Below are positions 1 to 45,799 of a DNA stretch of 48,636 nt, in pieces. The stretch is from Welwitschia mirabilis (taxonomy: Eukaryota): assembly GCA_051453625.1 (NCBI GenBank), contig JBOZIK010000001.1, positions 24,869,997 to 24,918,632 of the forward strand. Reading direction: 5' to 3'. How positions within the stretch are numbered: the stretch's first letter is position 1; each line of letters opens with the position of its first letter. The notes under the pieces were generated by a model, which saw only the letters and a program-made list of their open reading frames with translations, made no database searches and was not told where the DNA came from. Position numbers and translations under genes: made by a program.

Positions 1-1117
1 AAATCTTTGAGGGCCTCGATAGTCTTAGCCAAAAGGGCCTAGATATACTCTAATGAAGCTCCAACTATAGGTCTCTGTACCTAAGGTCTCTTTGCCTCTT
101 CTGATACCTGTATATCCATATCCTATAAATAGCAAGTAGAAGTCTGAATATGTAAGATACATCACTCACCTATGAGCTCTAGTATCCCAAATCGTCTGAA
201 CAAAGATGAGAGGAGGCATGGATAACGAAGTGTCTGTATATGTCCTGTCTCAATCATAGACCTAAGTCTCCTCTAGATAAAGGTCAATAAATCCATCTGC
301 TTCTCTTGATGGAAAGCTGTTAGAATCTGTAAATAAACAAACATAACATGACTATCATGGTATGATGAACTAATGTTATGAATCAGTCCTTTGTGCAAAA
401 CTCTGTATGCGAGGGTCAACCGGGTCACATTTCCCNNNNNNNNNNNNNNNNNNNNNNNNNNNNNNNNNNNNNNNNNNNNNNNNNNNNNNNNNNNNNNNNN
501 NNNNNNNNNNNNNNNNNNNNNNNNNNNNNNNNNNNCCCCCCCCCCCCCCCCCCCCCCCCGCCCCCCGCCCCGCCCCGTCGATCAGTGATAAATCAGCTGG
601 AATGTCTAAAATAGAACCATAAGCTCGAGGATCCTCTGTTTCACTAGCTGAATGAATATGCAAGCTCCTAAGTCCTCTAAGATCTATGATGACTACAATG
701 TGAGATGGGAGGATAGCTATCTTGTGGTCTCAAATGTATGTAACTATCATGTCCTATAGCTGACCACGAGTGTCTCGTCACCTTTCTATATGCATGATGT
801 CATAGAACTCTCTCATCTCAGAAGCATAATATGCACCATGTGCATCTATGATCCATCTAAGCTATAACTTTGTAAATATTTGATCAATCTCTGGCTCTAT
901 GCAGCTCATGAAATATCCAAAGTATCTCTTGACCCGAATGCTAGCTGTCTGTATGCTCAAAGATCGTCCGTGTCGAGGTGGCAGTTGTGTGGGCTCTGCA
1001 TGCTGTATCTTAGGCTTGACTAGAGAATGCCTACTATTCTATAAGCTCAGCTGAATCTTTTGCCTATCTAGCTCTACAAGTACGTGGCCTACTCCACCGC
1101 AAACATAAACTCGTCAT
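1..1117 (-). pseudogene. Accessory (env-position) ORF of family A element, degenerate
   Basis: Minus-strand translation contains ASEMREFYDIM and YPCLLSSLFRRFGI. Collinear with the ORF at about 45800-47027. Confidence 0.6.
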
Positions 1118-3847
1118 GCAAAAACAGATAAACAAGTTAAAAACGTCACATGGATGCACAATAACGACCTCTAAAATCGATGAAAAATTATCAAAAGTAC
1201 TAAAAATATGTCCTACCCTCCTTAAAAGATGCAATGCATCCCGAATTACCTAATTGTAAAAAGTCCCAAAACTGTGTATGTAGTGGGCCCCACAAGAAGT
1301 AAAAAATCGTAGTACTCAAATGAAAAATCTAATCTAGCAAAGTCGTAGATGACATCGCACTGATCAATTTTGCCTAAAGCACCACTATGATTTAACTTAC
1401 AGTTTGCGAGAAAATGAGTGTAAAGAGTAAAAGCCTGAAAATACCTCATAATATGCAAAAGTGATCATAACTTGAAAATATGCCCCGCAACCCGTCGCCG
1501 ATGTATGGTGGAAAACCATATCAATTTGATAACTATACCATATAGTAGGGGAGGGATCGGTAGTTCTTGTAAGAATTCACCATCCATCTTGCCTTGTCAG
1601 TTTCCAGTTGCTTACCTTCCATTGTGCAGTCAACTACATGTGGTTATATATGCGTGATGAGTTTGATCGCAAAAGCATGTATGCTTGGCACATGCATAAG
1701 CATAGTTATATGCTCCTCTGATAGAACTCATAACACAGCTAGTCCCTCATACAAAGCTCTCCATGCCCCTCTTCTTTTTATTCTATATAGTACAGTACAG
1801 TACAATGCGGTACGGTATGCACCTATTGGTGGGTTTATTTTCGTACAATGGTAGACCTTTCCCATCCACACCCCAATAGCATATTAATAATTGTTATATC
1901 TACACCTAAAACAAATAATACCACACTACCCGCTGCCTCTCTAGGGCCCTCATCCAACTAGAGGTAAGCAACCAGCGGGGGTAATATCGGGTCAATGGTT
2001 GCTACAGGCAGTATTGGGGGAGTGTAACATCTATTATGTTGTAAGGATCCCACATAGTATTTGGATTCACCTCCTCAAATCTGTAAGTCCCAAGACAAAG
2101 AGCGTGAAAAACTAAATAATATACATCAAAACTACCCGTCGAAAGGCTAAAAAACGAGAGAAAAAAATGAAAAATCAGGAGCAGAGAGAAACATACCTCA
2201 TTTTTGCAAATTTGAAGAAATCTTGTAATTCTAGTAATGAAATCAGACAAGACAAGTTCTAAAATGCCAATACTAGCCAAAGGGGTTATCTTCTCTTAAA
2301 AGAATGAAGGAAAACAATGAGAAAATGAATGAAAATGAGGAAAAATGGTTTGGACCATGCTTTTATCAGATTGTCATCCGCTCGCGTCATCTAGACGACA
2401 GCCATAGAATGACTGTTAGAAAAATCAGGTCATCGTCTGGCACATTATCACTTGAATGACAAGGTGGATGACGAGACACCAAAATCAAAAGGAAAAGATC
2501 AGCCATGAAAGTTAGGCTCGGGTAGAATCATTGAAGTGACGATTCTAAAAAGGAGAAAAAGATAGAAATCTGAAAATCACATAGAAAACACAAAAACCAG
2601 TAAAACCAAAGGAAAAGGGATAGAAACACACAAAAGGAAAAACTACGATTAAAGAAAATAGACTATCTAGATTGAAAACCTATAATAAAGACTGAATGAA
2701 TGTGCTTAAATAGAAAAATGAAAGCATAATAGACTTAGAAATCAATAATCCTACAAGGAAACTCATGAAGACTGTGGAAAATATGTTCTTTTAAATAATT
2801 TTTTATCAAAATTTATTTTTAAAAAAGTGTTTTATCATAATTGAACAGCAAGAAAACTACTAAATGATGAAAGTCCTAAGAAGAAATAAGAAAATGCAGA
2901 AATAACTTTGAAACAGTAGACTCAAAAACTAAAGAAAACCAGAGTAAAAATGGACATAAGGAATAAGGAGAAGATTGTTTACCTATCATAAGTACTAACC
3001 TAGCAAACTCCCAGGAAAAACATTATAACATCACTTGAGTAAATATGCATGAAAAAATGTATTAACTCCATAAAGTTTATTTGAAAAGGCAATGGTTATA
3101 GTGATATCCAAAGCTTCACGTGTGTAGAATAATGAATGCTAAAACCAAAAGTTACTTAGAAATGAACTCACTTGCCTCTACTCCACAAACTCACTAGAAT
3201 ATCCAAAAGTGAAATAATCCAATGGGAATCCTAAGAGTCTAAGAAACAAGCAATGCCTCTGATGATACCAGAAACATCACTGATCCCTAATCTCAAAGTG
3301 TTTATTTCTTTTTCCATGATGAGAGGAGCGCAATCATTATCAGAGGAGTAAGGACCTATGAAGCATGGCCAACTGAGCCCCCATTAGAGTTCCCACAGCT
3401 ATCATATTACACTGCTAAAGGCTCCTCTTAAAAATGTTTGCCCTAATGTACTTGCGATAGGACATCATGGTGACCATATTTTTGAGATAGCACAAATAGA
3501 AAACATCCTGGCCTTTATTTCACACTTTTTTTTTCGAGCAATTCTCATATAATCACACACCCAAAAAGAAAAAAAACGAAGGTGAATAAGTGAGATAAAA
3601 GACAAAAAAGAATACTTCCAAGTAATCTAAGATTTAAAAACCCTTGAAAAAAACACAAGAAACTGAGACATCTTCCTTTAAATATAGTTCATAGACATGG
3701 GAATGTCTCAATATTGGGTGAATCCAATTTTATCACCTGTAAATGCCCAAGTATAAAACTAATTATGATACTTTATGAAGTAATAAGTTTGAAAGATGAT
3801 TAGGTAATATCATAATATTTAACCAAAGGAGTAGGCTAAGAAAGAAC

Positions 3848-6800
3848 TTAAACAATGATAGGAAGGAAGTCCTCCTCACCAAGGGGAACCTCAAAAATAA
3901 GTGCTTCTACAATGTTCACAGTTGCATCTAAAGATTCCTTATATAATTTCAACCATTGTCCATTAATCTTCTGAATCTCTTTAGTTTCTAAATTTAAAAT
4001 TTTAACTGAGCCATTAAAATGCACTTTCTTTATGTAATAATTACTTAACCATTTAGAGGTTAACTTGTTATTCAAATGGTGAACTCTAGTATTATATAAT
4101 AAGATAAGTTGACCAGGTTTAAACTTTTAATGAAAAATCCTTTTATTATTTTTGAACTTTACTTAGGCTTTATGAATTAATTGATGATGTATGGTACTAA
4201 TTCTTTTTTTATCAAGATGATCTAATTGGGCTAACCTATATTAAGATTTTTAACAAAATCCACAAGATTTAGTTGATAAGATGTACGATAAGAATTGTAA
4301 CACACATTAACCGGTAAGACATAAACTTTATCATAAATAAGTTAGTAAGGTGAGAAACTAAGAGAAGTACGCTAAATAGTATGATAGGCCCAAAATACAT
4401 TGTTAAGCTTAGAAGGCCAAGACTTTTTATTAAGAAAGACAAGTTTTTGAAGCATTTTCTTTATTTCTCTATTAGCATTTTCAGCTTGTCCATTCATCTG
4501 AGGATAATAAGCATAAGCTATTATATGTTCAATACTAATGGACAGAAGAAGTTTTTTAAAAATTGAATTAATAAAATGAGTACTATGATCATTAATGATG
4601 ACTCTAGGGAAACCAAACCTTTGAAATATATAAGATCTAAGAAAATGATAGATAGTTCAAGCATCATTCAAAGAAGTAGGTATGGCTTCAACCCATTTAG
4701 TCACGTAATTAATAGCTACTAAAATGTAATTTTTATTAAAAGAAGATGGGTGAATAGGGGCCATGAAATTAATACCCCAATAATCAAAAGTCTCACACTC
4801 CAGAATAGGTTTAACGGGCATTTCCTGTGAATGAACAAGGCTACCAAAACACTGACAAGAATCACACCTTCTAACAAAATCAAACAAATTACAAAAGAGA
4901 AGGCAGTAAAAACTATAATGAAGGATTTTCATGGCAGTTTTATGTCCACTAAAATGTCTTCCACAAATACCACTATAATAAAGATGAAGAATCTTAGGTA
5001 TTTCCCAATCGGGCACACATTTTCTCATAATCTGGTCTTTGTACCTATGGTACAAATGTGGCTCGATCCACTCATAGTCACCTATACAATGAAGAAAATA
5101 TTTATGCTGATGATAGGTTCAATGTTGTGGTGTTTTTATGGTTACAAGATAGTTGACAATATCATCATATCATGGAGGAGGATGAGAAGAAGAAATAGCA
5201 AAAAGCTACTCATCAAGAAAGGAATCATCAATGAGAATGCCATGTAGAGAAGAAGGAAGTCGAGACAAATGATCAGAAATAGAATTATGCTTTCCTATTT
5301 TATCTATGATGGTCAAATAAAATTATTGCATAAAAAGGATCCATTTGATCAAATAGGCGCTAGAGTCTTTCTTGGTCATGAAGTAATGAATGGATGCATG
5401 ATTGGTATAAACATTCATGTGAAAGCTTAAAAGATAGTATCTAAGAGAATCAAGAAAAAAGATAATGTCAAGCATTTTTTTACTATAGTAGTGTAGTACA
5501 TCTGAGCTCTAGATAATGACTTACTATGGTAAGATATAACTTTGAAGTCCTTCTCATACTCTTAGTAAAGAACCCCACCCATGGTAAAATTGCTAGCATC
5601 ACACATAAGCTTAAAGTCAAGTGCCTAATTAGGTCCCATTACTATAGGAGCATGAGATAATTTATGTTTAAGCCTATCAAAAGCAATTTAACAAGATTCA
5701 TTCCATTTGAATTTGGCATCTTTCTCAAGTAACGGGTGAAGGGGTTTACAAATAGAAGCATAATTATAAATGAACCAATGGTAAAAACCACAATGACCAA
5801 GGAACGATCTCATTTGTTTAACATTTATAGGGGGATTAAGATTTTGAATAATACTAACTTTAGAAACATCCACCTTAATTCCTTCCCAAGAAATGTGATG
5901 ACCTAAAATAATGCCACTCTCTATAAGAAAATAACTCTTTTATCAACTCAAGTAGNNNNNNNNNNATCGATCTAAGACTTTCTCTAAATGATCTAAGATT
6001 TGCTCAAAAGTTTTGACATAGATAGAGAAGTCTTCTATAAAAATCTTTATGAAATCCTTAAGTATATTAAAAAAAGTACTCATCATAGCATGCTAAAAGG
6101 TACCAAGAGCATTGCAAAGTCTGAAAGGCATGCTTCTAAAGGCAAAGGTACTAAAAGAAGTGGTGAAGGTAGTTTTAGCTTTCCCTAAATTATATCAAGA
6201 ATTTTATTAAGAAAAGGTAAAGGACGGTGGTCTTTTTTAGTTACCTCATTTAGTTTTTAGAAGTTATGCATACACGTCATTTCCCAATCTTTTTAGGTAC
6301 TACTATTAAGGGGCTAACCCACTCACTATCAGCAATGGAGTAAATAATTCTAGCATCTATAAGTTTTATGATTTCATCTTTTACAATTTTCTTTAGGGCT
6401 AGATTTACTCTATACTGGGGTTACCTCATAGGTTTTGCATTTTCTTTAAGGTAGATGTTATATTACACAATGGAAGTGGAAATGGTTGATAGATCATTAT
6501 GAGATTAAGAAAATGCATAAACCTTTGATTGTAAGAGAGAAATGAGATTAGTTTCTTATTGAGATGAGAGATTTTTATTGATAATCAAAGGTTTATTTAG
6601 ATCTGTATTTATAAAAATGTATTTTACTCCACTGGCTAAAGGTTTTAGGTTTAAGTTAAGGTTCAGACTTCTGGTTTTTGGAAAATTTTCAAAAACGTTA
6701 ACTGTCATCTTAGATTGTCATCCAGACGTCAGTATTAGATGGCTAATCTTAACATAATAATTCTCAGGGTTTTTAGTTTTTTGGACATCAGAATAATTTA

Positions 6801-8352
6801 TAGACTTAAACTTACTCCTCCTCAAATCAGAAAACTCAGTTGGAAAATGGTCAAACTCAAGTTGTTCGTTAAGCACATAAAGTGATCCACTTTCATTTAA
6901 TCATCAAACAAGATTAAATCATGAAGCATGAATCATCTCTCCTCAAGTGGATGGTGTTATAAAAATAAGATTGGTTTTATTTCTTCCTTCACATCTAAAT
7001 CTTTGCCTAAATCATTTTTTGCCACATCAAACACTCTTATTAAAAATTGTTTATTTCCGAAATGGCACTTCATCAATTCAGTAGTTGTGTCTAGTATGCA
7101 ATGAGCTGTTACACAATAAGCTCTACTTAGAAATAGGGGATATCTACCATGATGCTCAACTTCTAAAACAACCACATCAATTGGGTAAAAGGATTTCTCT
7201 ATTTAAATGACTAAGTTCTTAATCACATCTAAAGATTTCTTGATGGATGTATTGACTAACTCTAAGATAATGCATGTAGGCTCTACTCTTTGTTCTAATC
7301 CAAGACGTTGACAAATGTGCAAGGGCATAATATTGACACTAGCTCCTCTATCTATCAAGGCTTTCTTAATTCTATGGTTTTCCTCTAAAGTGATACTAAC
7401 TATTATTGCCCCTAGGTCTTTAAACTTTAGACACTTTTTCTAAACCAAGTTGCTAATGGATTGAGCTAGGAAGGCCTTACTAAGAATGGTTCATTTTTGT
7501 TTCCTTCTTATTAGGTCTTTTCATGGCTTAGAGTATTTTGGATTCTCTTATAGAAGTTTCCAAAAATTTAAGTTAGTACTCACATTTACATTAAGGCTTC
7601 TAAATGATCATCAAATATGGGATTTACATTAAACCTATCAAGCCATGAAGTAGCGAGTTTCTTTTGTGAAGGATATTTTTTTGATTGCTAAGTGAGAAAG
7701 GAAAGGAATGGTTTTCTAAGATTTCTATGTCCTCTTTTTCATTATTTTTGTCATTTTAGGAAGTTAAAGCCTCATGGGTTATGTCATTTTCACTCCTTGT
7801 CACCACCTTACAATCTTTTCTTACTTCATTAGGGTTCTGTAAAGGTTGAGTGGTAAGGGTCCCTTGTGGTCTTTGATTGGTAAGCATGGTTTGTTATAAA
7901 ATACTTATAAGATTTTCTATGTTTGCATTTATTTTATTTTAAGTTTTTCTCAACTCTTCACTAGATTTCCTAAGAGGATCACTATAGTTTTAGACGTTGC
8001 AAGGGCTTAACAAGTTATTTAGATAGTTGAATTAAAAGTTTGAATGTTCAAATCTATTTTTGAAAGGCTAAAGTTAGGATGATGTGTTTGAAAATTTCTA
8101 GAATTTGCTTGCCCACTCATCCTATTTTAAAAATTGTTATTTTGGACTTCTCTTTAGTTGTGGTTTTGCATGTAGTTAAAAAGTCTTTAGTTAAATACAC
8201 AAACTTTCTCATAGATTATTTCTTTGTAAGTAGGAAGTAAAGGGAAATATTTTGTAACATGATAACTATTTTCACATAAATTACATGTTGGAACAATAAC
8301 TTCACTCTTTTTGGTTATCATTTTAGCATCAAGGATCATTTGGATATATTTC
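3848..8352 (-). pseudogene. Athila-like gag(C-term)-PR-RT-RNaseH-integrase pseudogene (copy A)
   Basis: ORF fragments 6957-7175 (protease), 5688-5873 (RT/RH, RSFLGHCGFY), 4657-5055 (integrase) and 3848-4075 (integrase C-terminus, KINGQWLKLY). Collinear with copy B. Confidence 0.88.
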
Positions 8353-8452
8353 NNNNNNNNNNNNNNNNNNNNNNNNNNNNNNNNNNNNNNNNNNNNNNNN
8401 NNNNNNNNNNNNNNNNNNNNNNNNNNNNNNNNNNNNNNNNNNNNNNNNNNNN

Positions 8453-11400
8453 TAGTAAAAAGCTGCTCATCAGGAAAGGAATCATTAATGAGAATGTTAT
8501 CTGGAGGAGAAGGAAGTCAAGACAAATGATCGGCAATAGAATTGTGCTTCCTTGCTTTATCTATGATGGTTAAATTAAATTTTTGCATAATAATAATCCA
8601 TCTAATTAAATGGGCATTAGAATCTTTCTCAGTCATGAGGTAACAAATAGCAGCATGATCAGTATAAACATTTATGTAAAATCCTAAAAGATAGTGTTTT
8701 AGATAATCAAGGCAAAAGATAATGGCAAGCATCTCTTTCTCTGTAGTGGTGTAATTCATCTGAGCTCTAAACAATGATTTGCTATGGTAAGATATAACTT
8801 TAAAATCATTCTCATACTTTGGCAAAGAACCCCACCCACGACAAAGTTACTAGCATCACACATAAGATCAAAGTCAAGTGCTCAATTGGGTCCCCTTACT
8901 ATAGGAGTATAAGATAATCTATGTTTAAGCCTATCGAAAGCAATTTGACAAGATTCATTCCATTCGAATTTAGCATCTTTTTCTAGTAATGAATGAAGGG
9001 GTTTATAAATAGAAGCATAATCACGAATGAATCAAAGGTAAAAATCACAATGACCAAGGAAAGATTGGATCTATTTAACATTTGTAGGGGAACTAAAATT
9101 TGGAATAATACCAACTTTAGAAGCATCCATCTTAATTCCCTTCCAAAACATATGGTGACCTAAAATAATGCCACTCTCTATAAGAAAATAACTATTTTCC
9201 CAACTCAAGTGGAGGCCACTAGAAAGGTATCGATCTAAGACTCTCTCTAAATAATTTAAGATTTATTCAAAAGTTTCAGCATAGATAGAGAAATCATCTA
9301 TGAAAATCTCAATGAAATCCTCAAGAATATCAGAAAAGATACCCATCATAGCATGATGAAAAATACTAGGAGCATTACAAAGTCCAAAAGGCAAGCATTT
9401 AAAGGCAAAGGTACTGAAAGGAGATGTGAAAGTTATTTTATTTTTGTCCTCAGTGGTAATGTAAACATGATTGTAACTGCTATAATCATCAAGGAAACAG
9501 TAAAAAGCATGAACCTGAATCCTATCAAGAATTTAATCGAGAAGGGCAAAGGATAGTAGTCTTTTTTAGTTACCTCCTTTAGTTTTCTGAAGTCTATGCA
9601 CATGCACCATTTCCCACCCTTTTTAGGTACTACTGTTAAGGAACTAACCCACTCACTATAAACAATGGAGTAAATGAATCCATCATCCATAAGTTTTATG
9701 ATTTTATCTTTTACAATTTACTTTAGGGTTGGATTGAGTCTATGTTAAGGTTGCCTCATAGGTTTAGCATTTTCTTTGAGGTACATTTTATGTTGCACAA
9801 TGGAAGTGGGTATGGCTGACAAATCTTTATGAGACCAAGCAAATGCATGAACCTTTGCTTCTAAAAGAGAGATAAGATCGAATTCTTATTAAGGTAAAAG
9901 ATTTTTGTTGATAATTAATGGTTTATTCATATATTTATTCAGAAAAATGTACTTTAGTTCACTGTCTAAAGGTTTTAGGTTCAGGTTTGAATTTAGACTT
10001 TTGGTTTCAATAAAATTTTCGGAGAAGCTGACTATCGTCTCAGACTTTCATTCAAATGGCAATAGTAGATGATGCACCTCAGAACAAGAATTCTTAGGGT
10101 TTTCAATCTCTCGAACTTCAAAATAGTTTATAGACTTAGACTCACTACTTCCCAGATTAGAAACCTTAGTTGAGAGATGAACAAACTCAAGTTAATCATT
10201 AAGCACATAAAGGTAGTCTACTTCCGATTTATCATTAAACAAGATTGGCTCATGAATCATGGTCCATCTCTCCTTAAGTGGATGATGCTGTAAAGTAGGG
10301 TTGATTTTATTTCTTCCTCCAAACTTAAATCATTGCATAAATCTTTTTTGGCAACATCAAACACTCTTATCAAAAGCTGTTTATTCCCAAAATGGAACTT
10401 CATCAATCTGATTCTTATATCTATTATGCAATGGGCTGTTGCAGAGAAAGCTCTACCTAAAAGTAGGGGATATTCACCATGGTGCTCAACTTTTAAAACA
10501 AATACATCAATGGGGTAGAAGGCTTCCTCTATCTGAATGACTAAGTCCTTGATCACACCTAATGGTTTCTTCATGGATGTATCAGCTAACTCCAAGATAA
10601 TGTGTGTAGGCTCTACTCTTTCTTTAAAACCAAGGCATTGACAAATGTGCAAGGGCATAATGTTAATACTAGCTCCTATATCAATCAAGGCTTTCTTAAT
10701 TCTATGGTTTCATTCTAAAGTAATACTCATGATTGCCGCCCCTAGATCTTTAAACTTTGGATCTTTTTTTATTACCAAGTTGCTAATGGATTGAGCTAGA
10801 AAGAATTTACTAGGGATGGTTCATTTTTATTTCATTATTATTAGATCTTTCGATAGCTTGGAGTATCTTGGATTTTCTTATAAAAGTTTTCAAAAAGGTA
10901 AGTTGATGCCTACATTTTACATTAAGGCTTTCAAATAATCATCAAAGATGGGGTTTGTGTTAAGCCTATCAAGCCATGGGGTAGTAGGTTTCTTTTNNNN
11001 NNNNNNNNNNNNNNNNNNNNNNNNNNNNNNNNNNNNNNNNNNNNNNNNNNNNNNNNNNNNNNNNNNNTCATCATCATTTTTGTCACTTTGAGAAGTTAAA
11101 GCCTCATTGGTAGGGAGAGTTGTGTTATTTCCACTTCTTATCACTACCTTACAATCTTTTCTTAGTTTATTAGGGTTTGGTAAAGATTGAGTGGCAAGTG
11201 ACTCTTATGGTCTTTGATTGGCAAGCATCGTTTATTGTAAAATACTCACAAGATTTTCTATGTGGGTGTTGTCTTCTTTTGAGTTTTTCTCAACTCCTTA
11301 ATGGAATTCCTAATAGGATCACTATGGNNNNNNNNNNNNNNAGGGTTTACCAAGTTGTTTGGATTGTTGGATTGAAAGTTTAAATGTTCAAATCTATTTC

Positions 11401-12470
11401 TCAAAGTTTGAAAGTTAGGATGATGTTTTGAAAATTTCTATAGTTTAGTTGCTCACTCATCCTATGTTGAAAGTTGTAATTTTTGGCTTGTATTTGGTTG
11501 TGGCTTTGAATGTAGTTGGAAGGTCTTTGGTTAAAGGCACAAACTTCCTCATAGATTTTCTCTTTGTAAGTAGGAAGTAAAGGGTAATCCTTTGTGACAT
11601 ACAAATCGCATGTCAGAACAACAACTTCACTCTTCTCAGTTACCACTTTAGCATCAAGGATCATCTAGGTGTATTTATCTAAGGTAGAAGTAAAATCCTT
11701 AATGATGCTAATTAGTTAATTTTCTATTTTGGTTTCATTCTTCTCATGTTTAACTTCTTTTAGGTCCTTAATGATTTGGCCTAATATTTGGTTTTCTCTA
11801 AAGGAGGGTTTAGGGTAGGTTTGAATTACTTCCACTAAATTTTTCAACACCTTTCAAGCATCTTCTAGGGTTTGGTTTAACAGGTTGCCTCCACAAGAAA
11901 AATCTACGAGTTGTTTGGTATGACTATTTAACTCACTATAAAAGTGGTCAACTAACTCTACCTCTGAAAAGGAATCTATAGGATTTGAATGTAAAGCAAC
12001 AAAGAATCGCTTATAAGTAGATGCACAGTCTTCATTAGGTAACTGTTGGAAGTTGATAACTTCTTTCTTACACTTCCAGATGATGATTTCACTCATGAAT
12101 CTATATATGAAGGCTTCTTGAACTTGACTCCAAGTTTTAAGGCATTTATGGGGAATCGTTCTAAGCCAAAATTTTGCTTTATCTCTCAAGGTGATGGGAA
12201 AGATAACCATATAGGTTCTATGAGTATTGGGTTGAAAAGGAATGGACGTAGGGGTTCCAATAATAGGAGGTGGATTTGGAAAGATAGGTTGTTTAAGCTT
12301 TTATTTTAAGATTGACATGGTAGAAAAATCAAACTCTCTAGAAATAAAAATGGAAATTGTAGAGAATTCAAAATGTTATGTACCTTCACTATTTTTATCT
12401 ATTTCTATTTCAAGATTTATCAAATCTTTTCTGATGTTTTCAGCAATCAACAGTCGCTCTCTATAGTATT
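8453..12470 (-). pseudogene. Athila-like gag-PR-RT-RNaseH pseudogene (copy B)
   Basis: ORF fragments 11854-12210 (gag), 10257-10688 (protease), 9433-9690 (RT N-part, SEWVSSLTVVPKKGGKW) and 8517-8825 (RNase H). Many stops and frameshifts. Confidence 0.88.
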
Positions 12471-12961
12471 TTTTTTATACTAGACTTAACCATTCATACT
12501 CTGTCTTAGATCTATAAAAGTATTATTGCTTTAGTCATCTGGACAATATCCTAGATGATAGAAATACAGAAACCACAAGAAAAGAAAAAGTAGAAAATAG
12601 AAATGAAAAATTAACTTTTTAACATAGTAAAGATTCAGAAAACAGTCTATCATTCACCTGGTTGTTTGGATGACAAAGAGGACGATGGAACTAGAATCTT
12701 AAAAATTTAAACAAAAAACTAAAATAGAAAAAACTTGCGGCACAGAGGCCATCATCTCCATAAGTTATCTGGATGACAGAGCATATGATAAAACTTTTTA
12801 TTGTAAAACAGAAAAAATAGAATTTGATTTAAAAAATAGAAAACTGACTCTGTAAAAATGGGAATTACCCTACTGCAGGTACCATTACATCACTGCTACA
12901 GTAAGCATCCAAATTGAAATACTTACCAAAGCAATGACAGCTCTTAAACTCTAAGCAGCCT

Positions 12962-12980
12962 TCCCTAGTAATGGCGCCAA
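12962..12980 (-). other. Primer binding site, Athila type (tRNA-Asp)
   Basis: Minus strand reads TTGGCGCCATTACTAGGGA, a transition-eroded form of TTGGCGCCGTTGCCGGGGA. Confidence 0.8.
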
Positions 12981-12985
12981 GATAT

Positions 12986-14072
12986 TTTAGTGCATATTTA
13001 TGTAATGTTTATGTCTTGATTAGAATTCTGTTAACTACAAATAATATGCACAAACAAAACACACTAATATAGATGGAAGTGACCTGAATGTCGTAATACA
13101 TTGAAGGCCAAAATATGGAAATAAGAGAGTTGCTTTCAAGATGAAAAATATTGTAACCCTAACCTACAAAAATAACTTGCAATGCATGAAAATGAAATAA
13201 AACACACTTATGCAAAATTAATTTAGGAAAAGAAATAATAATGCATCTAAACTAACCAAGAACAACCTTAACAAAGGTTGCCCTCATAATCTATATCACA
13301 AGAGAAGCTGGCACTGAATCTCAAGTAACATAAATTCTAAGGGAGAAGATAATTCATACATTAAGCACAAAAAGAAATGTTTATATTAAAAATTCACATC
13401 ACATCTATATTATAAAGTAGCTACATCTCAATGGAGGAAATGCCGCCCAATACTAAGGAAAAATCTATCTAAAATTACAGGATAGTTCTCTGGCCCCTTG
13501 ATCTCCTGTCATGAGTGTGTTACGTACCAACGAAGATGAGCAAGAAACGAGAGAAAGACATCTATTTATTGACTTAAAACATAAAATAAAATGGACAGAA
13601 AGGCATGGAAAAATCCTAACCATCATGCAAAAATAAATCAGAATAAGTGGAAAAAGTTTAGGTGAACATTCAGTGTGGGCGTTACAAATAGTGTCATCCA
13701 GCTAGTCGTCCAGACGATACAGGAGATGATGCTATCTCATAGTTAAACCCTCATCTGCTGCCAGTTAAACTACCATTTAGACATTAGTCAGCATCTAGTT
13801 TGCATAGTTATCTATTCCTATCATCCGGACAATCTGGTAGATGATGGACTTCGATAGATTGCTTTAGCTTTGTTGTTTGCAGGAAGTTATCATCCGAAAT
13901 ATATATTATTCATATTTGTTCAGAATGTTTGTAATTTACTAAGGAAATTGCATATTCACATCCTTTTCATTCCATCTTTCCAATATTATGAAAACCAATT
14001 ATTTACCTATCCATTTACCTGCAAAACAACTCAAAATACCCTATCAAATATATGTAAGTCTGTGGCGCAATA
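12986..14072 (-). repeat. 5' LTR of family A element (about 1.09 kb)
   Basis: Abuts the PBS. Alignable by eye at both ends to 44016-45254, e.g. both carry ctcaaaataccctatcaaatata near the plus-strand right end. Termini are eroded. Confidence 0.75.
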
Positions 14073-14238
14073 GTAAGTTTTATTATGATCATGTACTAAT
14101 TAAACATGCTTACTCCATTGTGCTATTTAGTAATGCAATTGTGATTTAATTTTGATTTTATGATATCCCAACTAAAATTGTAAATGCTTGCACTACTAAG
14201 ATTTACCAAGTCATGGACATCACAAAAAAGGGGAAGAT

Positions 14239-24200: not shown

Positions 24201-25278
24201 TGGTAGAGTTTTTATTTGCATTACCATTTTTCATTCCACATCCATTCACATTACTGTTTTCACCTTACCCCTATTCTATGAGAAAGCACATCAAAGGCAT
24301 AAATCTTTTTTATTATGGATTGAACTTTTACTTGNNNNNNNNNNNNNNNNNNNNNNNNNNNNNNNNNNNNNNNNNNNNNNNNNNNNNNNNNNNNNNNNNN
24401 NNNNNNNNNNNNNNNNNNNNNNNNNNNNNNNNNNNNNNNNNNNNNNNNNNNNNNNNNNNNNNNNNNNNNNNNNNNNNNNNNNNNNNNNNNNNNNNNNNNN
24501 NNNNNNNNNNNNNNNNNNNNNNNNNNNNNNNNNNNNNNNNNNNNNNNNNNNNNNNNNNNNNNNNNNNNNNNNNNNNNNNNNNNNNNNNNNNNNNNNNNNN
24601 NNNNNNNNNNNNNNNNNNNNNNNNNNNNNNNNNNNNNNNNNNNNNNNNNNNNNNNNNNNNNNNNNNNNNNNNNNNNNNNNNNNNNNNNNNNNNNNNNNNN
24701 NNNNNNNNNNNNNNNNNNNNNNNNNNNNNNNNNNNNNNNNNNNNNNNNNNNNNNNNNNNNNNNNNNNNNNNNNNNNNNNNNNNNNNNNNNNNNNNNNNNC
24801 ATTTAGCTTTGTTATACATATTCTAGCAAAGTTGCATTTCTTTGCATTTTCCCTTTTCTAGTTGCAATAAAATGACATGTAGTAAAGCATATTCTTTCTA
24901 AGGTTTTATCAACTTATTCTAAAATTCTACATTGATTTTTTCCTATCTTTTCAAACTTTTAGAAGAAGTTCAACTTCAGTTTGGGAGGTATAGCATTCGC
25001 ATTTTTTATTTTAATGCCTCATTTTCTCAAAAATTAGCCAAATTCTTCAAGTTTATCATTCTTATACTTGAATGGCTTTCNNNNNNNNNNNNNNNNNNNN
25101 NNNNNNNNNNNNNNNNNNNNNNNNNNNNNNNNNNNNNNNNNNNNNNNNNNNNNNNNNNNNNNNNNNNNNNNNNNNNNNNNATTCTTATACTTGAATGGCT
25201 TTCTTAGAAAGATTTCCATGTTAGTTATTCTTTATTGTGATTTTTGCTAAGGGATTAGCAAAAGTTTTGTCAAGGGTG

Positions 25279-26599: not shown

Positions 26600-29500
26600 T
26601 TTCTACCTAGAGCGTTTTCTATAATCCTAATCCAATGTTGGCATCCATGGTTTAAAACTCTAATACCTCTCTTAAGTTTAAATCAATTACCTAATACATC
26701 AAAAAGGAATGTTTCCATCACACCTACGACAGGATTAATTTTTAATCCTACCATAATGCCTCAACAAAATCATTTGCATAATCCTACACAAATATGATAA
26801 AGTAGACCAAATCAATCATATGTAGTTCCTCACTTACAATCGTATCCAATTTAAGAAGCACTTTTGCAACAAGCTTAAATTGGAAATTTTGGATTTTACA
26901 ACCAATCACATCTTCCAAATATAACTCAACTAGAACCAACCCTTAAAGATTTAAACTTTTAATGTAAACAAATTCATAAAGAACCATTAGTTTTTCCACC
27001 TATACTAGATGTATAAGTAAGAAACGTGCAATTATGACCTTCATTTCATAGCATAGATGCTTCATGAACCTATGACTTATTTAGTAANNNNNNNNNNATT
27101 TATACTCTTAAAAACTATAGAGAAAACAAAAATTATTGCATTTAGGACTAATTAAAAGATAAGAAAAACTCCTAATTATAAACCCCACAAAGTCAAATTC
27201 AATCATGGAAAGAATTTAAAATTTCCTCCATGAGGAAATTCATTTTTAATGATAAGCTCTATAACTTATAAATAATCCTATGAATGTTTTTGTAAAATTT
27301 ATCAACAAAACCCTCATCATGGATTTCAATCCCACCAACTATTAAAAAGTTCCGTTAAGGAATTAGAAAAATATGTGAGACAACATGTTAATTTTGCAAT
27401 AGAAGGGAACATATTAAACACAACACATGAGGTAAACTTTAAAATTTTATAGGAATTAGTGAATCAAATCAAGATATGGCCAAAAAATTAAAAAAAAAAT
27501 CTTTACTTAAGAACAATCTGTTATGGTAAAGAGAATGAAGGAAATGATGTAGAAAATCATGAGCATTATGCCTTGTTAATAATCTTATATACCTACTATA
27601 ACACATGTACAAATATATATTACTATAGTGTAATATATGATGTTACCAAAACCTAACCAACAATAATAAACACAAACTATTCTCTTTTAAGTTCCATAGA
27701 ATGAAATAGTTTGTATTCAACAAAAGCTAAGAATCCATAATTATGTGTTCTTTGTGAGAAAACTAGTCATCAAGTTCAAGCTTATCGATCTTGGCAATAT
27801 CTACTTAGTATAGTGAAGGACATGATAGTAGTATTTCAAAGTAATACATATTCTACTTTAACTTTATCATCTTCTTCTCAATGAGGTTATCCTAAGAATC
27901 AAATACCACAATGATAAGGATACTCCAACTATGAACAAAAAGCATCATATGTAGAAAATATGTATAGATCTTAAGTTGAAAAAAGACTATATGTATCACA
28001 ACAATAATTATAACTTTGGGTTTAGATAATTTTACCAATAATAGACCATGCCTCAGAGCATGAAATAACAAGTGGACTTAATGAATAAAAAGGTTAGAAA
28101 CATTAAAACAAGGATTACCAATTTTGCTTAAAAGTAGAAATTATCCTACCTTTACAAGAAGAGACAAATCATGTCAATAACCATTATGAATAAGCACATT
28201 CAATGATGGACTAAATGGGAAAAACCTAGAACCAATGCAAATCAACAAGCACTATAAAAAGACTAAAATAATTGAGAAAAAAACTCTATAAATCAATGGA
28301 ATACTACATACTCGAATTATTAGAACAATCCCAAGAAACTCTTCATTATCACTCCTATATCTCTGGTAGATCCAAAAACTAGACCATGATTTCCTAGGTG
28401 ATTAAAGAAAAATCTCATTGAGGATGAATAAATAAATAAGATATTTAAAGAGGCCTAACTTAGATTGCCTTTGATTTAAGCTTTGAAGTATACCCATTTA
28501 TACTCCAAATACATCAATGGTTTGTGATTCGAAAATAAATGGAAATTCATCCCTAAATAAGTTCATTTAGTTGAAAACATTACACAAATGATGAAGGAAA
28601 AAAAATACCACCTAAACATAAATATTCAGGGTTATCTACTATTCTAGTAATTATTAATAAGAAAAAGGTGTTGCATGCGTTGCTTGATCTAGGTGGAAGT
28701 GTCAACCTCATGCCTTCATATCTTTGTAAAACCTTAGGTCTAATGGAATTCTCAAACTTTAATATGATTCTATCATTAGCCAATGGATCAATAGCCAATC
28801 CAGTTGAAATCACTAAAAATCTATAAGTTGATTAAGTACTCTATCTTGTAGGCTTTGTAATTCTAAAAATTATTTAAATTTTTTTTAATCATTTTAGTAA
28901 GATATTGATTAGCCAATACAGATGTTATAATACATTATCACACTAGTTTAGTTTAACTTACCTTCATCAATATTCCTTTATCAATCTTAAAATGAATATG
29001 AACATTTTCAATCCAATGAAACCTAGGGAAGAAGGAAAGAACAAAGAAAAAATATCATTCGTAAATACCTCAACTCTTGCACTTTTCAAAAGAGAACTTT
29101 TTCAAATACTTTTAGAAAATGAATAGGAACATGTGTTATGTACAGATAAAGAACATGATGATATCACTATTATAAAAGAATCATTACTATCTAGACCATA
29201 AGGTAGTCAAGAAATCATCACACAAAATGAAATTATAGAAACATTAGAGCTTACTACCCACTTTGAAATACTTCTTCTTGGATGAAGAAGGAACTAAACC
29301 TCTAATCATTATTAACAATCTAGAACTAGAACTTGAGGTAAACTTAATTTGAAGAAATAAAGGAAAATATAAAAGGTTTTTTCTTTGTTACACAATGATC
29401 TTCAAAGAGGAACTTTACCAACATTAGTTATGCACAAAATTTATTTAGAAGAAAATGTTAAATAAGTTAAGAAACCCTCTTGCCATTTGAATCTTACATT

Positions 29501-32000
29501 ATAAAAGATAGTTAAAGACAAATTTTATAAGTTATAAGAAAAGGGAACCATCTATTTCATATCAGATAGTGGTTGTTCCTAAGAAAAAGAGTAAATGGTG
29601 AGTTTGCATTAACTTTAGAAAATTCAATGAATGTATAAGAAAATATCAATTTCTCATATCATGCATCAATAAAATCCTATATAAACCTTTTTTGACATCA
29701 ATTTATTATTTTTTAGATGGATTTGACAGATACAATCAAATTGCAATCACCCCTATAGATCAATATAAAACAATTCTCATCTCATCCTTTGAAACTTTTG
29801 CTTATTGTGAAATGCCTTTTAGACTTCATAATGCATATGCAACTTTTCAAAAAGCCATGATGTTAATTTTCTTTGACATGCTTAAATAATTTGTAAAAAC
29901 TTTTATGGATGATTTTGTAATATATGGTGATACCTTTGACTTTATAGACTTTGCAAATCATTATCACGATGTAGTGAAAAGAACTTAAAATGTAACTAGG
30001 AGAAAATCCATTTAATGGTTATAAATGAAATCATTTTAGTATGTCTCACAAATAGGTATGAGTATAAATCCTAAGAAAATTCAGGTTCATTACCAACTCC
30101 AACAAATCTTAAAATATTTAAAGGTTTCTCAGGATATTCTAGGTATTATCAAAGATTCATCAAGGATTTTTTAAAAAAACTGCAAAACTGTTGTATGAAT
30201 TACTAGATGAAGATAAACATTTCATATGGAATTATGCTTTTGAAAAAGCATTAAATGTTTTAAAAGAGCTAGTCTTCATGGCACTTGTTATTAGAGCACC
30301 TAATTGGAATTATTCCTTTAATCTTATGTGTGATACCAGTAACACAAATATAGGAATTATCCTAGGACAGTACATTAACATAACCTACATGTTATTTATC
30401 ATAGCTCAAAAATCCTTAATTCATCTCAGGCTAATTACACACTAATAGAAAAAGAACTGCTTGCTATTATCACTACACTCGATCAGTTTTGATACTACCT
30501 TGTAGGTTTTAAAACTTAAGTTTATATAGATCACTTATCTATTAAGTTTCTAGAAATTAAGCAAATTGATAATGTTTGAATCATGCATTAGTGTTTATTA
30601 ATATAAGAATTTGATTTGGACATTTGAGATAAACAATACCATGCTAATGTAGTAGATCATCTCTTCCATTTAAAAATAGTGGATGAATGTCATACTAAAG
30701 AGATATCTAATGATTGATTTCCATATGTAAAATTATTCACAATCCACCATAATTCCATAAGAAAGACCCCTGATATGCTTATATTACAAATTTCTTATCC
30801 ACTATACAAATTTATTAGAATTAGTTAATGAAGATAAGAATTTGTTCTTAAAATGGATTAAGAATTACATTTGGTAAAGATGAAATTACATGTAGTATGT
30901 TGTGAACGGGGAAAAAACCCAAGATCCTAAGGTTGTTTCATGATATCAACCACAGACGACACTTTAATGAGGATGAGATCACTAAAAAATTCCTTAAAAT
31001 GGATTTTATTAGCCAATTGTTTAAGGATTCATAGGGTTATGTTTCAAAATGTGATATATTATCAATGATTGAGAAGAATTTCTAAAACAAATGAGATGTC
31101 AATGAACATGATTATGGAATGTAAATTAAATGATTATAAATATATTACAGTTTGTGTTGATTATATCATAAAATGGGTTGAAGCTCAAGCTATCAAAACA
31201 AATGATGTTAAGGTTGTTATTAACATTTTTTGAGAGCACATTTTGCAATGTTTTGATTATTCAAAAGTATTCATTAGTGATCAAGGAATCCATCTAGCTA
31301 ATAAAATAATAAGGAAATTAATAACATCAGTAGGAATTATTCACAAAGTAGCAACTGCTTATCATCGACAAACAAATGGTCATCTTGAAAATTACAATTA
31401 TGAAATTAAAAGAATTTTTTTAAAACCATAAATTCTAACCATAATGATTGGTATAAGAAATTAAATGATTCTTTAATAAGTATATGAAAGCACTTGCAGA
31501 AACTGATTAGGATATGCTTCTTTTTAATTGTTTATGGAAAATAATGCTTCTTACCAATGTAGGTTTAACGTAAATCATGGAAGTTGATGTAAAAACTTAA
31601 CTTAGTAGTGAAGAGAACATTCAGAAAAAGGCGATGCAACTAGAGAAATTAGATGAATTGAGATATCATGCAATTAAATATCAATGAATAATGACGAAAA
31701 AAGAAAAATACCATCACGAGAGACAAATCTGTAAGAAAGAATTTTAACCCTAGAGACAAGGTTTTGCTTTACAACATAAGATTACATAACTTGTCAAAAA
31801 ATTAGAAAGAAATGGGAAGGATCCTTTGAGGTAGTTAACATAAATTGAAATGGAAGTATACTAAAAAGTCTAACTTGTAATATTTAGTTCACTATAAATG
31901 GTTAATGTTTAAAATTATATGATGAGAATGATCTAGATAACTTTGATGTGAATCTTGAAGGACCTCTTGAATCTGATTCTCAAATTCTTACTTCTAATAA
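26600..32000 (+). pseudogene. gag-pol pseudogene of the family C element
   Basis: ORF fragments 29692-29889, 30191-30445 and 31243-31431 fall in gypsy domain order, with many stops. Confidence 0.85.
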
Positions 32001-37878: not shown

Positions 37879-40407
37879 ATGGCTGCTACCGACGTCGCCA
37901 TGGGGGAGAGTGAGACTTTCGCATTTCAGGCCGAAATCAATCAACTGCTGAGTCTCATCATCAACACTTTCTATTCTAACAAAGAAATCTTCTTGCGAGA
38001 ACTTATCAGCAATGCTTCTGATGTAAGTTTTGCCTCCTTGTTTCAAACCTTTTAATTGTTTGCAGGTTTTGTCGACAACGCAATTCCTGTTTCGAAATAG
38101 TAAGGCTACGAATTCAAAATTTTCGGGTTTGCGGATTCGTTTTTGGTAACTCTTCTGAATCGATTTTTTGTTATTGTTTTTAGGCGTTGGACAAGATTCG
38201 CTTTGAGGGATTGACAGACAAGAGCAAATTGGAAGCTCAACCAGAGCTCTTCATTCGGATTGTGCCTGACAAGGCCAACAAAACGCTCAGTGTTATTGAC
38301 AGCGGTTGTGGCATGACTAAGGCCGGTAAGTTTTGGGCTGCTTCAAATCCACCCCCTTTTTTTTCCGTTTTCTGAAGTTTTATGTTCGAATTTTAAGCGA
38401 TTTCATATGCAAATGTAGATTTGGTAAACAATCTGGGGACAATTGCTCGTTCTGGAACCAAGGAATTCATGGAGGCCTTACAGGCCGGGGCTGATGTCAG
38501 TATGATTGGTCAGTTTGGAGTCGGATTTTACTCGGCCTATCTTGTAGCGGAGAAGGTTGTTGTCACCACTAAACACAACGATGATGAACAATATATCTGG
38601 GAGTCTCAAGCAGGTGGCTCCTTTACTGTCACCAGGGATGTCAATGGTGAGCCCCTTGGCAGAGGCACCAAGATTACCTTGTTTCTCAAGGACGATCAGG
38701 TAAGTCTTCTTGTTTGCAGTTATGTTAATCTGTCATGTGTTCCTATGTGTGTTTGATCTACGTTAGAAGTTCATTCTTCAAATCTGTTTAGAGGATTTAG
38801 TGTAAATCCTTAAATATCTGAGGAAAAAATCTTTGGGTCTATTTTTGCAGTTGGAATATCTCGAAGAGAGGAGGCTGAAAGATCTCATTAAAAAGCACTC
38901 CGAATTCATTAGCTATCCGATCTATCTGTGGACAGAAAAGACGACTGAAAAGGAGGTAAGCGACGACGAAGAGGAGGAATCTGCAGAGAAGAAGGAAAAA
39001 GAAGGTGATGTCGAGGAGGTCGAAGATGAAGACAAGGAAAAGTCGAAGAAGAAAAAGAAGGTGAAGGAGGTGTCACATGAATGGGTGCAGGTCAACAAAC
39101 AAAAACCAATCTGGATGAGGAAACCCGAAGAAATCACAAGGGAGGAATATGCTGCCTTCTACAAGTCACTGACCAACGACTGGGAAGACCATTTGGCGGT
39201 GAAACATTTCTCTGTGGAGGGGCAGCTGGAATTCAAGGCCATCTTGTTTGTGCCAAGGAGGGCACCCTTTGATCTCTTCGACACTCGCAAGAAGCTCAAC
39301 AACATCAAGCTCTATGTCAGGAGGGTCTTCATCATGGACAACTGCGAGGAGCTCATTCCAGAGTACCTTGGTTTCGTGAAAGGTGTTGTGGATTCTGACG
39401 ATCTGCCTCTGAACATTTCTCGTGAAACGTTGCAGCAGAACAAGATTCTGAAGGTCATTCGCAAGAACTTAGTCAAGAAATGTATCGAGCTGTTTAATGA
39501 GATTGCAGAAAACAAGGAGGACTATGCCAAGTTCTATGAGGCCTTCTCGAAGAACATCAAATTGGGCATCCATGAGGACAGCCAAAACAGGGCCAAGCTT
39601 GCAGAGCTTCTGAGATTCCATTCTACCAAGAGTGGAGACGAGACGACTAGCCTCAAGGACTACGTTACTCGCATGAAGGAGGGTCAGAAAGATATCTACT
39701 ACATCACTGGTGAGTCCAGAAAGGCAGTTGAGAATTCTCCATTCTTGGAAAGGCTCAAGAAGAAGGGATATGAGGTGCTTTTCATGGTTGATGCCATTGA
39801 TGAATACGCTGTGGGACAGTTGAAAGAATATGACGGCAAGAAGCTGGTTTCGGCCACAAAAGAGGGGCTAAAACTAGAGGAAACAGAGGAGGAGAAGCAG
39901 AAGAAAGAAGAAAAGAAGAAGTCGTTTGAGAACTTGTGCAAGGTCATGAAAGACATTCTGGGTGACAAGGTTGAGAAGGTGGTTGTTTCAGACCGTATAG
40001 TGGAGTCTCCGTGTTGCCTTGTGACAGGTGAATATGGATGGACTGCAAACATGGAGCGTATTATGAAAGCTCAGGCGTTGCGTGATAGCAGCATGTCCTC
40101 GTACATGACTTCCAAGAAAACCATGGAGATCAATCCGGAGAACTCCATTATGGAGGAGCTCCGAAAGAGGGCTGAGGCCGACAAGAACGACAAGTCTGTA
40201 AAGGATCTAGTGCTTCTCTTGTATGAGACTGCCCTGTTGACATCTGGATTTTCTCTTGACGACCCCAACATGTTTGCTGGTAGGATTCACAGAATGCTGA
40301 AATTGGGTCTTAGCATTGACGAAGAAGCAGATGCTGATACCGACATGCCGGCTTTGGAAGATGACACTGCTGCACAAGAGGAATCCAAGATGGAAGAGGT
40401 TGATTAA
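37879..40407 (+). CDS. HSP90-1: Cytosolic heat shock protein 90 (HSP90.1/HSP83 type), 707 aa, 4 exons: 37879-38022, 38184-38325, 38419-38699, 38851-40407
   Basis: The spliced frame is open across three GT-AG introns (38023-38183, 38326-38418, 38700-38850). It reads [55 protein letters not shown]...[14 protein letters not shown]...GQFGVGFYS and ends in MEEVD. Three introns and the short N-terminal extension match the inducible HSP90.1 subtype. Confidence 0.97.
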
Positions 40408-43800: not shown

Positions 43801-44015
43801 ATTATATGTGTTCTATAGACAACACGCGATGCAAGTTGTTGAGATGTTGTGATGGTTGTTTAGACAATCTCATTGATTGACTATATTCATTACTTTTACT
43901 TCCATTTTCATTCCTATATTGTTTATAATAGGAAATGTAATAAGTATGCACTTAGACGTATTGATGTTGAAGTGAACATTGAACTCACTAGCATGATTAA
44001 TTTAAAGCTCACTAT

Positions 44016-45254: not shown

Positions 45255-45799
45255 TAGCCCTTCACTTAGCTTTGTCAGGCCTTGATAAAGCCAGGTGAAC
45301 AACTATGATTGGAAGCCAAATTGACTAATCATAAATCAACTTTAGAACTGTGAAGTATACTTAGAGATAATCTTAGAAATCTCAGAATGCAGAACAAAAA
45401 TGTGAGGAACAGATAATTAAACATTTCACCTATGAAGTGTAAGTGGTCGTACTGTTGTCATGATGGTCGTCCAGATGATAGAGGGGATGACAGGCTCAAA
45501 AATTGATCTTAAAAAAATAGAAGCCTATGAATTTTTTTTTAAGAAGATAAACATTAAAATGGATCACTATTAATAGTCCCCTACTCAAATATACAATAGA
45601 TACTAAAAGTTTATGCATAACATAAAAAATCCTCATCATGAAGTGTCAAAAAAATGATATGTAAAAGATGTGCATAATATCCAGCAATAACGATATACAC
45701 CATGGTGATATACTCAAAAAATGATATGTTTATATAAATAATGAGTTTTTATACAATCCACAGAGGGAAGATACATAATACAATTGTATTAAATCACTC

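Follow-up and report, generated by a model that had tools for sequence, protein, structure and literature searches.

Why would a retrotransposon carry the same short, four-part palindromic box at nine separate places along its length? A 48,636-nucleotide stretch of the Welwitschia mirabilis genome (contig JBOZIK010000001.1, positions 24,869,997 to 24,918,632; here called the window) raises this question. It is AT-rich eukaryotic DNA with assembly gaps, and it holds two partial, decayed copies of a Ty3/gypsy family on the minus strand, which we refer to as copies A and C. The box spans 38 to 41 base pairs (bp), follows the order RTCRTCY, 5 to 8 nucleotides (nt), RTCRTCY, RGAYGAY, 5 to 7 nt, RGAYGAY, and occurs 13 times in the window. 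We tentatively favor, at a little less than even weight, the explanation that it is a cis-acting recognition box peculiar to this family, to which an oligomeric factor probably binds on DNA.

Units were scored by comparing their four heptamers to GTCRTCY (forward, F) or RGAYGAC (inverted, R) in the order F-N5-7-F-R-N5-7-R, for a maximum of 28. The scan returned 12 units at 22/28 or better and 9, 7, 6, and 3 units at thresholds of 23, 24, 25, and 26, respectively; a thirteenth unit (2432-2472; 23/28) has a first spacer of 8 nt. One hundred first-order Markov simulations of the window averaged 0.05 units at the threshold of 22, and in none of them did a unit reach 23. The other seven half-site orders, put through the same scan, gave no unit in six cases and one unit in the seventh, leaving F-F-R-R as the only enriched order. 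Half-site pairs matching at 13/14 or better (F|R, F-n-F, and R-n-R) number 9, 7, and 10 in the family, all of them within units, versus 0, 1, and 1 outside it, with 0.3 to 0.8 per window expected from simulation. Lone perfect heptamers in the family outside the units are found at background density only. Since half-site pairs are confined to the units, the four-part unit is itself the entity.

The 13 units represent nine nonhomologous positions: two in the U3 portion of the long terminal repeat (LTR), three in the leader, one in the linker between protease and reverse transcriptase (RT), and three in the 3' noncoding region. The U3 units of the 5' LTR of copy A lie at 13693-13730 (26/28) and 13807-13845 (23/28; 225 nt from the LTR start), and their respective homologs in the 3' LTR of copy C lie at 44895-44932 (22/28) and 44981-45018 (25/28). 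U3 units are located 225 to 377 nt from the LTR start, about 430 to 580 nt upstream of a TATA-like box. Leader units at 12751-12789 (24/28), 12649-12686 (23/28), and 12522-12559 (21/28) fall 187 to 454 nt past a primer-binding-site-like sequence, the first of them 187 nt downstream of it in the orientation of the element. The linker unit is present in both of two pol copies, at 6704-6743 (26/28) in the first and, as its homolog, at 10034-10073 (22/28) in the second. The 3' noncoding region of copy A holds units at 2373-2413 (27/28; spacers of 6 and 7 nt) and 2432-2472 (spacers of 8 and 5 nt), and that of copy C holds units at 47675-47715 (25/28; homologous to 2373-2413) and 45454-45491 (25/28). 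Measured from the 3' LTR, two of these 3' positions are at about 2.4 kb and the third is at about 190 nt. The units are dispersed rather than clustered, with two per LTR, and they are retained at homologous places in copies A and C, whose noncoding DNA is 62 to 68% identical. Extrapolating from the two partial copies, a full element would carry about 11 units (two per LTR, three in the leader, one in pol, and three in the 3' region).

A preliminary description of this locus had listed nine units throughout copy A, and all nine are present at the coordinates it gave. Its range proved too narrow, as four more units occupy 44895 to 47715 in the second family copy. The segment 12534-12559, described there as a partial unit, does carry the box, but the unit is whole and begins at 12522 with a decayed first half-site. 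The attribution of the box to this one family holds within the window: copies A and C, which together make up 18.7 kb, hold all 13 units, and the remaining 29.9 kb is free of them, a distribution with a chance of about 2e-4 for nine independent positions.

The half-sites of the 13 units match the consensus at 312 of 364 positions (86%). Among the 52 half-sites, position by position, the profile is R1 in 51 (G 30, A 21), T2 in 48, C3 in 41, R4 in 52 (A 35, G 17), T5 in 51, C6 in 41, and Y7 in 49. Spacers behave differently: across 74 nonhomologous unit pairs, identity is 25% for the five bases that end spacer 1 and 36% for the five that open spacer 2, which is chance level, versus 70% and 60%, respectively, in the four homologous pairs. 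The heptamers are thus kept in nonhomologous units while the spacers are unrelated, as had been proposed. Our argument for selection comes from this comparison of sequences, in which half-sites conform at 86% to one consensus at nine unrelated places and spacers stand at chance. We infer that selection kept the half-sites, that their reader is a protein, and that it acts on DNA.

A recognition box of this kind would display RTCRTCY, mostly in the form GTCATCY, as two forward and two inverted heptamers to a sequence-specific factor, which would most likely read it on double-stranded DNA, binding as a dimer of dimers. The U3 boxes, situated upstream of the TATA-like box, would have a regulatory role of the enhancer type, and those in the leader, the protease-RT linker, and the 3' noncoding region would be further sites of the same factor. 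If a host factor binds the box, its thousands of genomic copies would amount to a large dispersed pool of that factor's site.

The preliminary description had preferred a protein-binding site to an RNA hairpin. We counted pairs in a fixed half-site register; a MAFFT alignment of the 13 units split the first base of the last half-site across columns. The two arms of a unit form 119 of 182 possible Watson-Crick pairs, compared with 119.6 when partner arms are drawn from other units, and 2,960 of 5,000 permutations reach the observed value. Cross-pairing (H1:H3 plus H2:H4) yields 117 of 182 Watson-Crick pairs, and 153 of the 182 arm positions pair if G:U is allowed. The spacers form 34 best pairs versus 33.7 in 3,000 shuffles, 1,594 of which reach 34, and the covariation check detected neither spacer stems nor within-unit compensation, in agreement with the earlier statement that spacers do not pair. 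RNA folding is better than in shuffled sequences at z < -2 in 4 of the 13 units, and z ranges from -1.6 to +0.7 in the other nine. No Rfam family at gathering score and no tRNA gene was found in the whole window. We reject a local RNA hairpin element, as the arms are no better matched within a unit than between units and the spacers are unpaired. Because the heptamer sequence itself is conserved, the data argue for recognition of a specific sequence, whether a protein reads it or any forward heptamer pairs with any inverted one, and not for nine independent local hairpins. The preference for recognition over a unit-specific hairpin therefore stands, but these tests do not separate DNA-protein binding from RNA-RNA pairing between units.

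Pairing between units, in RNA or in minus-strand cDNA, could serve the dimerization, packaging, or 5'-3' cyclization of genomic RNA, possibly with Gag bound; we consider such a module possible rather than probable. It could take the form of a two-step hairpin with a symmetric internal loop or of pairing with a unit on a second RNA or across the genome, given that forward heptamers complement all inverted ones. Every unit place could be present in genomic RNA (three in the leader, one in pol, three in the 3' region, and two in U3 via the 3' LTR), and the near equality of cross-paired, partner-swapped, and nominal stems is what any-to-any pairing predicts. Spacers free in length and content would suit internal loops, the four units that fold at z < -2 are consistent with structure, and an asymmetry that is consistent relative to the element strand in all 13 units fits a directional molecule. 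Set against these points, G:U shows no excess over A:C on the sense strand of the element (21 versus 34; G:U pairs number 34 on the antisense strand), no compensatory change was seen, and 9 of the 13 units fold no better than shuffles, though decay could account for the latter. Lone heptamers, which any-to-any pairing could use equally well, are not enriched in the family, and pairing offers no reason for the same heptamer on both arms of one side.

A precedent for such pairing exists in Ty1, in which the short complementary boxes CYC5/CYC3 and PAL serve RNA cyclization and dimerization. Both systems place conserved short complementary sequences at distant positions of a retrotransposon RNA; those of Ty1 are single pairs at two ends, in contrast to the repeated four-part unit at nine places described here. 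A more far-reaching proposal, which we think unlikely, is that the boxes constitute an element-wide code: about 11 identical self-complementary sites in the genomic RNA, read by Gag or by the protein of the 3' open reading frame (ORF), would pair genomes or join the leader to the 3' region for packaging and strand transfer. If true, this would represent a multisite dimerization and packaging system not described for plant retrotransposons.

Several observations weigh against the favored explanation of a factor bound on DNA as an oligomer. The units are only imperfectly symmetric: in 12 of 13, the base behind the third half-site is A, whereas the mirror T is found in 4 of 13 (Fisher p 0.004), and T stands before the first half-site in 9 of 13, compared with 3 of 13 that have A behind the fourth (p 0.05). 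A symmetric oligomer does not predict such asymmetry. Spacer composition differs as well, spacer 1 being pyrimidine-rich and spacer 2 purine-rich (purines, 32/74 versus 47/71; p 0.008). The earlier designation of the box as a palindrome is correct in the dyad order F-F-R-R, but its two-fold symmetry is incomplete. Spacer length varies (5 to 8 and 5 to 7 nt), which a rigid tetramer would tolerate poorly. Most of the observed units, and 7 of 11 on the inferred full-length element, lie downstream of the transcription start, in the leader, the linker, and the 3' region, where a function in RNA would be no less plausible. The binding factor is only putative, and a literature search by heptamer matched no plant binding motif in the titles and abstracts of the papers listed. 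Homologous half-sites in the old copies are about 70% identical (78/112 by our own count), near the 62 to 79% of their surroundings; given this closeness to the flanks, postinsertion decay hides any constraint, which is not demonstrable from decayed copies alone. The evidence base is two decayed elements in one window.

The last two points bear equally on the notion that the boxes have no function and persist passively, as leftovers of a short palindromic sequence inserted long ago or of duplications within the element. Homologous half-sites that are not clearly better kept than their flanks, in the single window examined, are compatible with that notion. Passive decay, however, would erode half-sites and spacers alike, and the one stands at 86% of consensus and the other at chance. 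Unit borders show no target-site duplications by eye, the units form no tandem array, and the same architecture recurs in two lineages that are only 62 to 68% alike. We therefore judge passive carriage improbable.

Five further candidates were tried and rejected. A miniature inverted-repeat transposon does not agree with spacers that are 25 to 36% identical in nonhomologous units, nor with borders free of target-site duplication by eye. For a tandem repeat or satellite seed, Tandem Repeats Finder (minimum score, 30) reported no array over any unit in 1-14200 and 43500-48636. TGATGA, expected of a box C/D or k-turn element, is present in only 1 of 26 inverted half-sites; the arms are mixed, unlike a polypurine tract; and the ATGAC half-sites face the wrong way for a bZIP site.

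The closest known kind of sequence is the palindromic repeated-motif (RM) box of the Sireviruses. According to their description (PMC2829016), RM boxes are palindromes of 11 to 20 nt with dyad symmetry, present in 8 to 32 copies per element, and proposed as regulatory sites. They are described there as starting 200 to 400 bp after the LTR start, in U3 and located upstream of the TATA motif, mostly clustered in the upstream half of the LTR, and as occurring also in an internal linker ahead of the env-like gene, with a CGG-CCG core as their signature (PMC2829016). The likeness extends to short dyad palindromes repeated within an element, to a family-specific sequence richer in G+C than its surroundings, and to a U3 zone (225 to 377 nt from the LTR start here) combined with internal copies. 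The U3 and internal boxes would parallel the Sirevirus boxes in U3 and upstream of the extra 3' gene. The four-part box is nonetheless set apart by its host, its core, its build, and its places. The host is Ty3/gypsy and not a Ty1/copia element with integrase before RT, and the half-site RTCRTCY lacks the CGG-CCG core. Where the RM box, as described, is a single palindrome, the present one is built from four heptamers, one pair direct and one pair inverted, and its spacers of 5 to 8 nt are free. The units are also apparently fewer and are dispersed, form no clustered arrays, and are found in the leader and pol as well.

A similar arrangement of sites is known from DNA transposons. The IR/DR ends of Sleeping Beauty-type elements and the TnpA motif clusters of En/Spm lie on either side of an entire DNA transposon, whose transposase binds them. 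Like the box, they set two direct protein-binding sites facing two inverted ones, a pattern of two arrows pointing right and two pointing left; in the box, by contrast, the two sides abut with no cargo, show no target-site duplication, and reside in a retrotransposon. Our literature search, which included term searches within a Retand paper, found no description of such a box for gypsy-type elements, which is weak evidence of absence since its coverage was partial. To our knowledge, apart from the primer-binding site, the polypurine tract, and some U3 enhancers, little has been learned of the cis-acting signals of plant gypsy-type elements. A box kept at nine places would offer a handle on the control of the family, as bait for a binding factor, as a target for RNA probing, and as a family marker.

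The record of decay in the units bears on both their original form and a possible link to silencing. Of the 52 departures from GTCRTCY, transitions account for 44, including 41 of the type C>T or G>A, an excess that fits methylated-cytosine decay. Positions 3 and 4 read CA in 32 half-sites, TG in 8, CG in 9, and TA in 3, with an equal CA bias in forward and inverted half-sites, and position 3 is the sole half-site position in a CpG. Symmetric CpG decay would yield as many TG as CA, yet CA dominates, which makes GTCATC the principal form of the site instead of something derived from GTCGTC by decay. The earlier claim that most variants are products of CpG deamination is therefore correct as to the kind of change but too broad, since it could apply only at position 3 and GTCATC is the main form.

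Methylation-like decay is also what one would expect if the boxes mattered mainly as hairpin-forming palindromes that provoke, or are hit by, silencing through host small RNAs, a role proposed for LTR palindromes of maize Sireviruses. As described in PMC4728375, the palindromes of maize Ji and Opie are 17 nt long, number about 7 per LTR, and are restricted to LTRs; they can form hairpins, are hotspots matched by small interfering RNAs (siRNAs) of 21 to 22 nt, and have been assigned regulatory and silencing roles by proposal. They share with the present boxes a location in the regulatory half of the LTR, arms that are better kept than the center, and proximal pairs; they differ in that siRNA data exist for them, whereas the boxes here are known from sequence alone and most units lie outside the LTR. 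The units have a G+C content of 44% versus 33% in their flanks, which, together with the 41 of 52 C>T or G>A departures, is as expected of methylated DNA. The stems, however, measure only 7 and about 5 bp in a unit of 38 to 41 nt. Stems this short are poor candidates for Dicer, which requires longer substrates. Silencing would moreover describe a consequence of the boxes and not why the element keeps them at nine places, and we regard it as a quite improbable primary explanation.

The unit inside pol had been assigned to the coding region of the linker in both pol copies. It does lie between the protease-like ORF and RT in both, but the frame that continues into RT has a stop inside the unit in each, at residue 94 of both read-through translations. 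A full HMMER search returned 17,447 protein matches at E <=0.001, and homology usually starts past the unit, near residues 113 to 117; among 150 listed proteins, the best stretch begins at or before residue 86 in 3. For BLASTP, we selected 13 of the 150 listed proteins, comprising the 12 with the earliest-starting best stretches and one chosen for its span. In six full alignments and part of a seventh, the unit region aligns only to a variable, often acidic linker, which indicates that the pol box sits where the polyprotein tolerates almost any sequence. Decayed copies are uninformative on whether the pol box is translated in active ones. A frameshift stimulator was considered and rejected, the pol units being about 185 to 215 nt past the end of the protease-like frame.

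We also searched for the box beyond this family. The exact four-part pattern has no match in viral contigs and one match in metagenome contigs, on a contig of 53 to 62% G+C with other GTC/GAC-rich runs nearby; we take this match as chance or low complexity. Relatives of the pol were absent from viral contigs, whether a single protein or a 16-row alignment was used as the query, and were present at 15 loci in prokaryote genome contigs, with pol 27 to 50% identical. None of these 15 gypsy-type contigs has a unit at 23/28 or more. In all 16 loci (53,824 bases), only the pattern-selected L001 reaches that score, with a borderline 22 in L012 and a 21 in L004, the latter inside an open gag frame. 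The lack of units in the 15 contigs indicates that the box is not general to gypsy-type elements. Nine of the loci (L002 to L010) encode plant-like gypsy polyproteins in prokaryote bins, eight contigs in one Sideroxydans bin and one in a Stigonema bin, and L004 has an open gag-pol frame of 1346 codons; gypsy-bearing contigs in bacterial and cyanobacterial bins are evidently eukaryotic contamination. Within the window, an inverted gypsy-like pol remnant (29266-31426), 58 to 61% identical to the pol of copy A, contains no unit and serves as a negative control.

The host element is Ty3/gypsy by its gene order, which on the minus strand runs gag, protease-like, RT, RNase H, and integrase. The coding region of copy A (3848-12300) carries many stops. 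It comprises the gag ORF (12300-11854; Pfam Retrotrans_gag), a protease-like ORF (10709-10257) with an ALIDxGAS motif and no Pfam match, RT around 9717-9263 (RVT_1), RNase H at 8846-8517 (RT_RNaseH), and integrase-like ORFs at 5118-4372, with the end of pol near 3848. A word-index protein search with the protease-like ORF, restricted to longer proteins, gave no match at E 1e-5. The 5' LTR of copy A occupies 12995-14070, with ends approximate to a few bases; it adjoins a primer-binding-site-like sequence that starts with TGGCGCC (12976-12992), followed by the leader (12975-12300). The 3' noncoding region of copy A (1-3847) is at least 3.8 kb and continues beyond the window edge. In copy C, the 3' LTR spans 44017-45262 (ends approximate), and the 3' noncoding region spans 45263-48636. 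All of these features are on the minus strand.

This map of LTR, leader, and 3' region rests on repeat matches, on the primer-binding-site-like sequence, and on shared repeat starts. Self-comparison aligned 4-3344 with 46090-48636 at 63 to 68% identity and 13210-14070 with 44403-45252 at 62% identity. The TGGCGCC sequence directly follows the repeat of copy A and none lies beside the matching repeat of copy C at about 44017, and the LTR-like repeats of both copies have like starts, near 14068 and 45262. A different, unrelated repeat begins at 14070, at the edge of the copy A LTR. The TATA-like box, read by eye, is at about 13290-13300 in the copy A LTR.

Long 3' regions, an extra ORF, and a compact pol point to the Athila lineage. 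That lineage is marked by gypsy gene order, a long stretch that separates pol from the 3' LTR and carries an additional ORF, the absence of a second RNase H ahead of integrase, and a tRNA-Asp primer-binding site. Here, the 3' region is at least 3.4 to 3.8 kb with an ORF common to both copies, and RNase H and integrase are only about 80 nt apart, leaving no room for a second RNase H. The TGGCGCC site presumably resembles the sequence complementary to plant tRNA-Asp. The ten closest proteins that we looked up (of 150 listed) are 26 to 45% identical to the query and are named reverse-transcriptase proteins of two asterid plants. The shared ORF downstream of pol lies at 46336-46878 (minus strand; 180 aa) in copy C and at 273-729 (minus strand) in copy A, and has no Pfam match. 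It falls near the protein-atlas clusters PF20167 ("putative plant transposon protein") and PF03078 ("ATHILA ORF-1") with scores of 0.90 to 0.92, which we treat as a lead only.

The two pol copies are recognized from a repeat of 3.3 kb, reaching from the end of gag to RNase H, in which 5196-8351 repeats 8453-11676 at about 79% identity. An N gap (8353-8452) falls exactly at the joint of the doubled piece. DNA contigs from two runs connect 5191 straight to 8453 or 8457, a form in which the second piece is lacking. This doubling could reflect two elements merged by scaffolding or a real rearrangement.

The family is very abundant, with hundreds of thousands of matching contigs in each of two DNA runs. 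Variant letters from these contigs cover the units only at 2432-2455, where other genomic copies are nearer the consensus at 2432, 2435, 2451, 2452, and 2455. Contig depth over the leader, part of U3, and the distal 3' region, which hold most units, is far below that of the conserved core segments. Contig depth is very high over three segments of about 35 to 45 bp (3387-3428, 13263-13298, and 14013-14059), each bordered on both sides by loose ends, in both DNA and RNA runs. They are the most conserved or most widely shared pieces of the family, corresponding to a piece of the 3' region, the core promoter, and the LTR start, and other families may share them too. The TATA-like box coincides with the second of these very abundant segments in the DNA-run contigs, with loose ends at 13263 and 13298. 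RNA reads matching the window number 504 and 131 in two runs; they are mostly less than 90% alike, fall on both strands, and are close to zero in most unit-bearing bins, and hence are uninformative on expression or splicing.

The remainder of the window contains features unrelated to the box. A 41-nt run of C (536-576; 85% pure) adjoins an N gap (436-535) and is probably an assembly or sequencing artifact at the gap edge. Two pairs of direct repeats, 20522-21237/25779-26493 (76% identity, 5.3 kb apart, enclosing a large N gap at 24335-24799) and 14070-14502/17960-18457 (69% identity, 3.9 kb apart), could represent the LTRs of other small elements. On the plus strand, a plant-type HSP90 exon (38806-40407) has an open frame of 533 codons and matches Pfam HSP90 over nearly its full length (E 7e-244). 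The G+C content around it, from 36 to 42 kb, is 38 to 44% versus about 30% elsewhere, and the frame is a host gene between retrotransposons.

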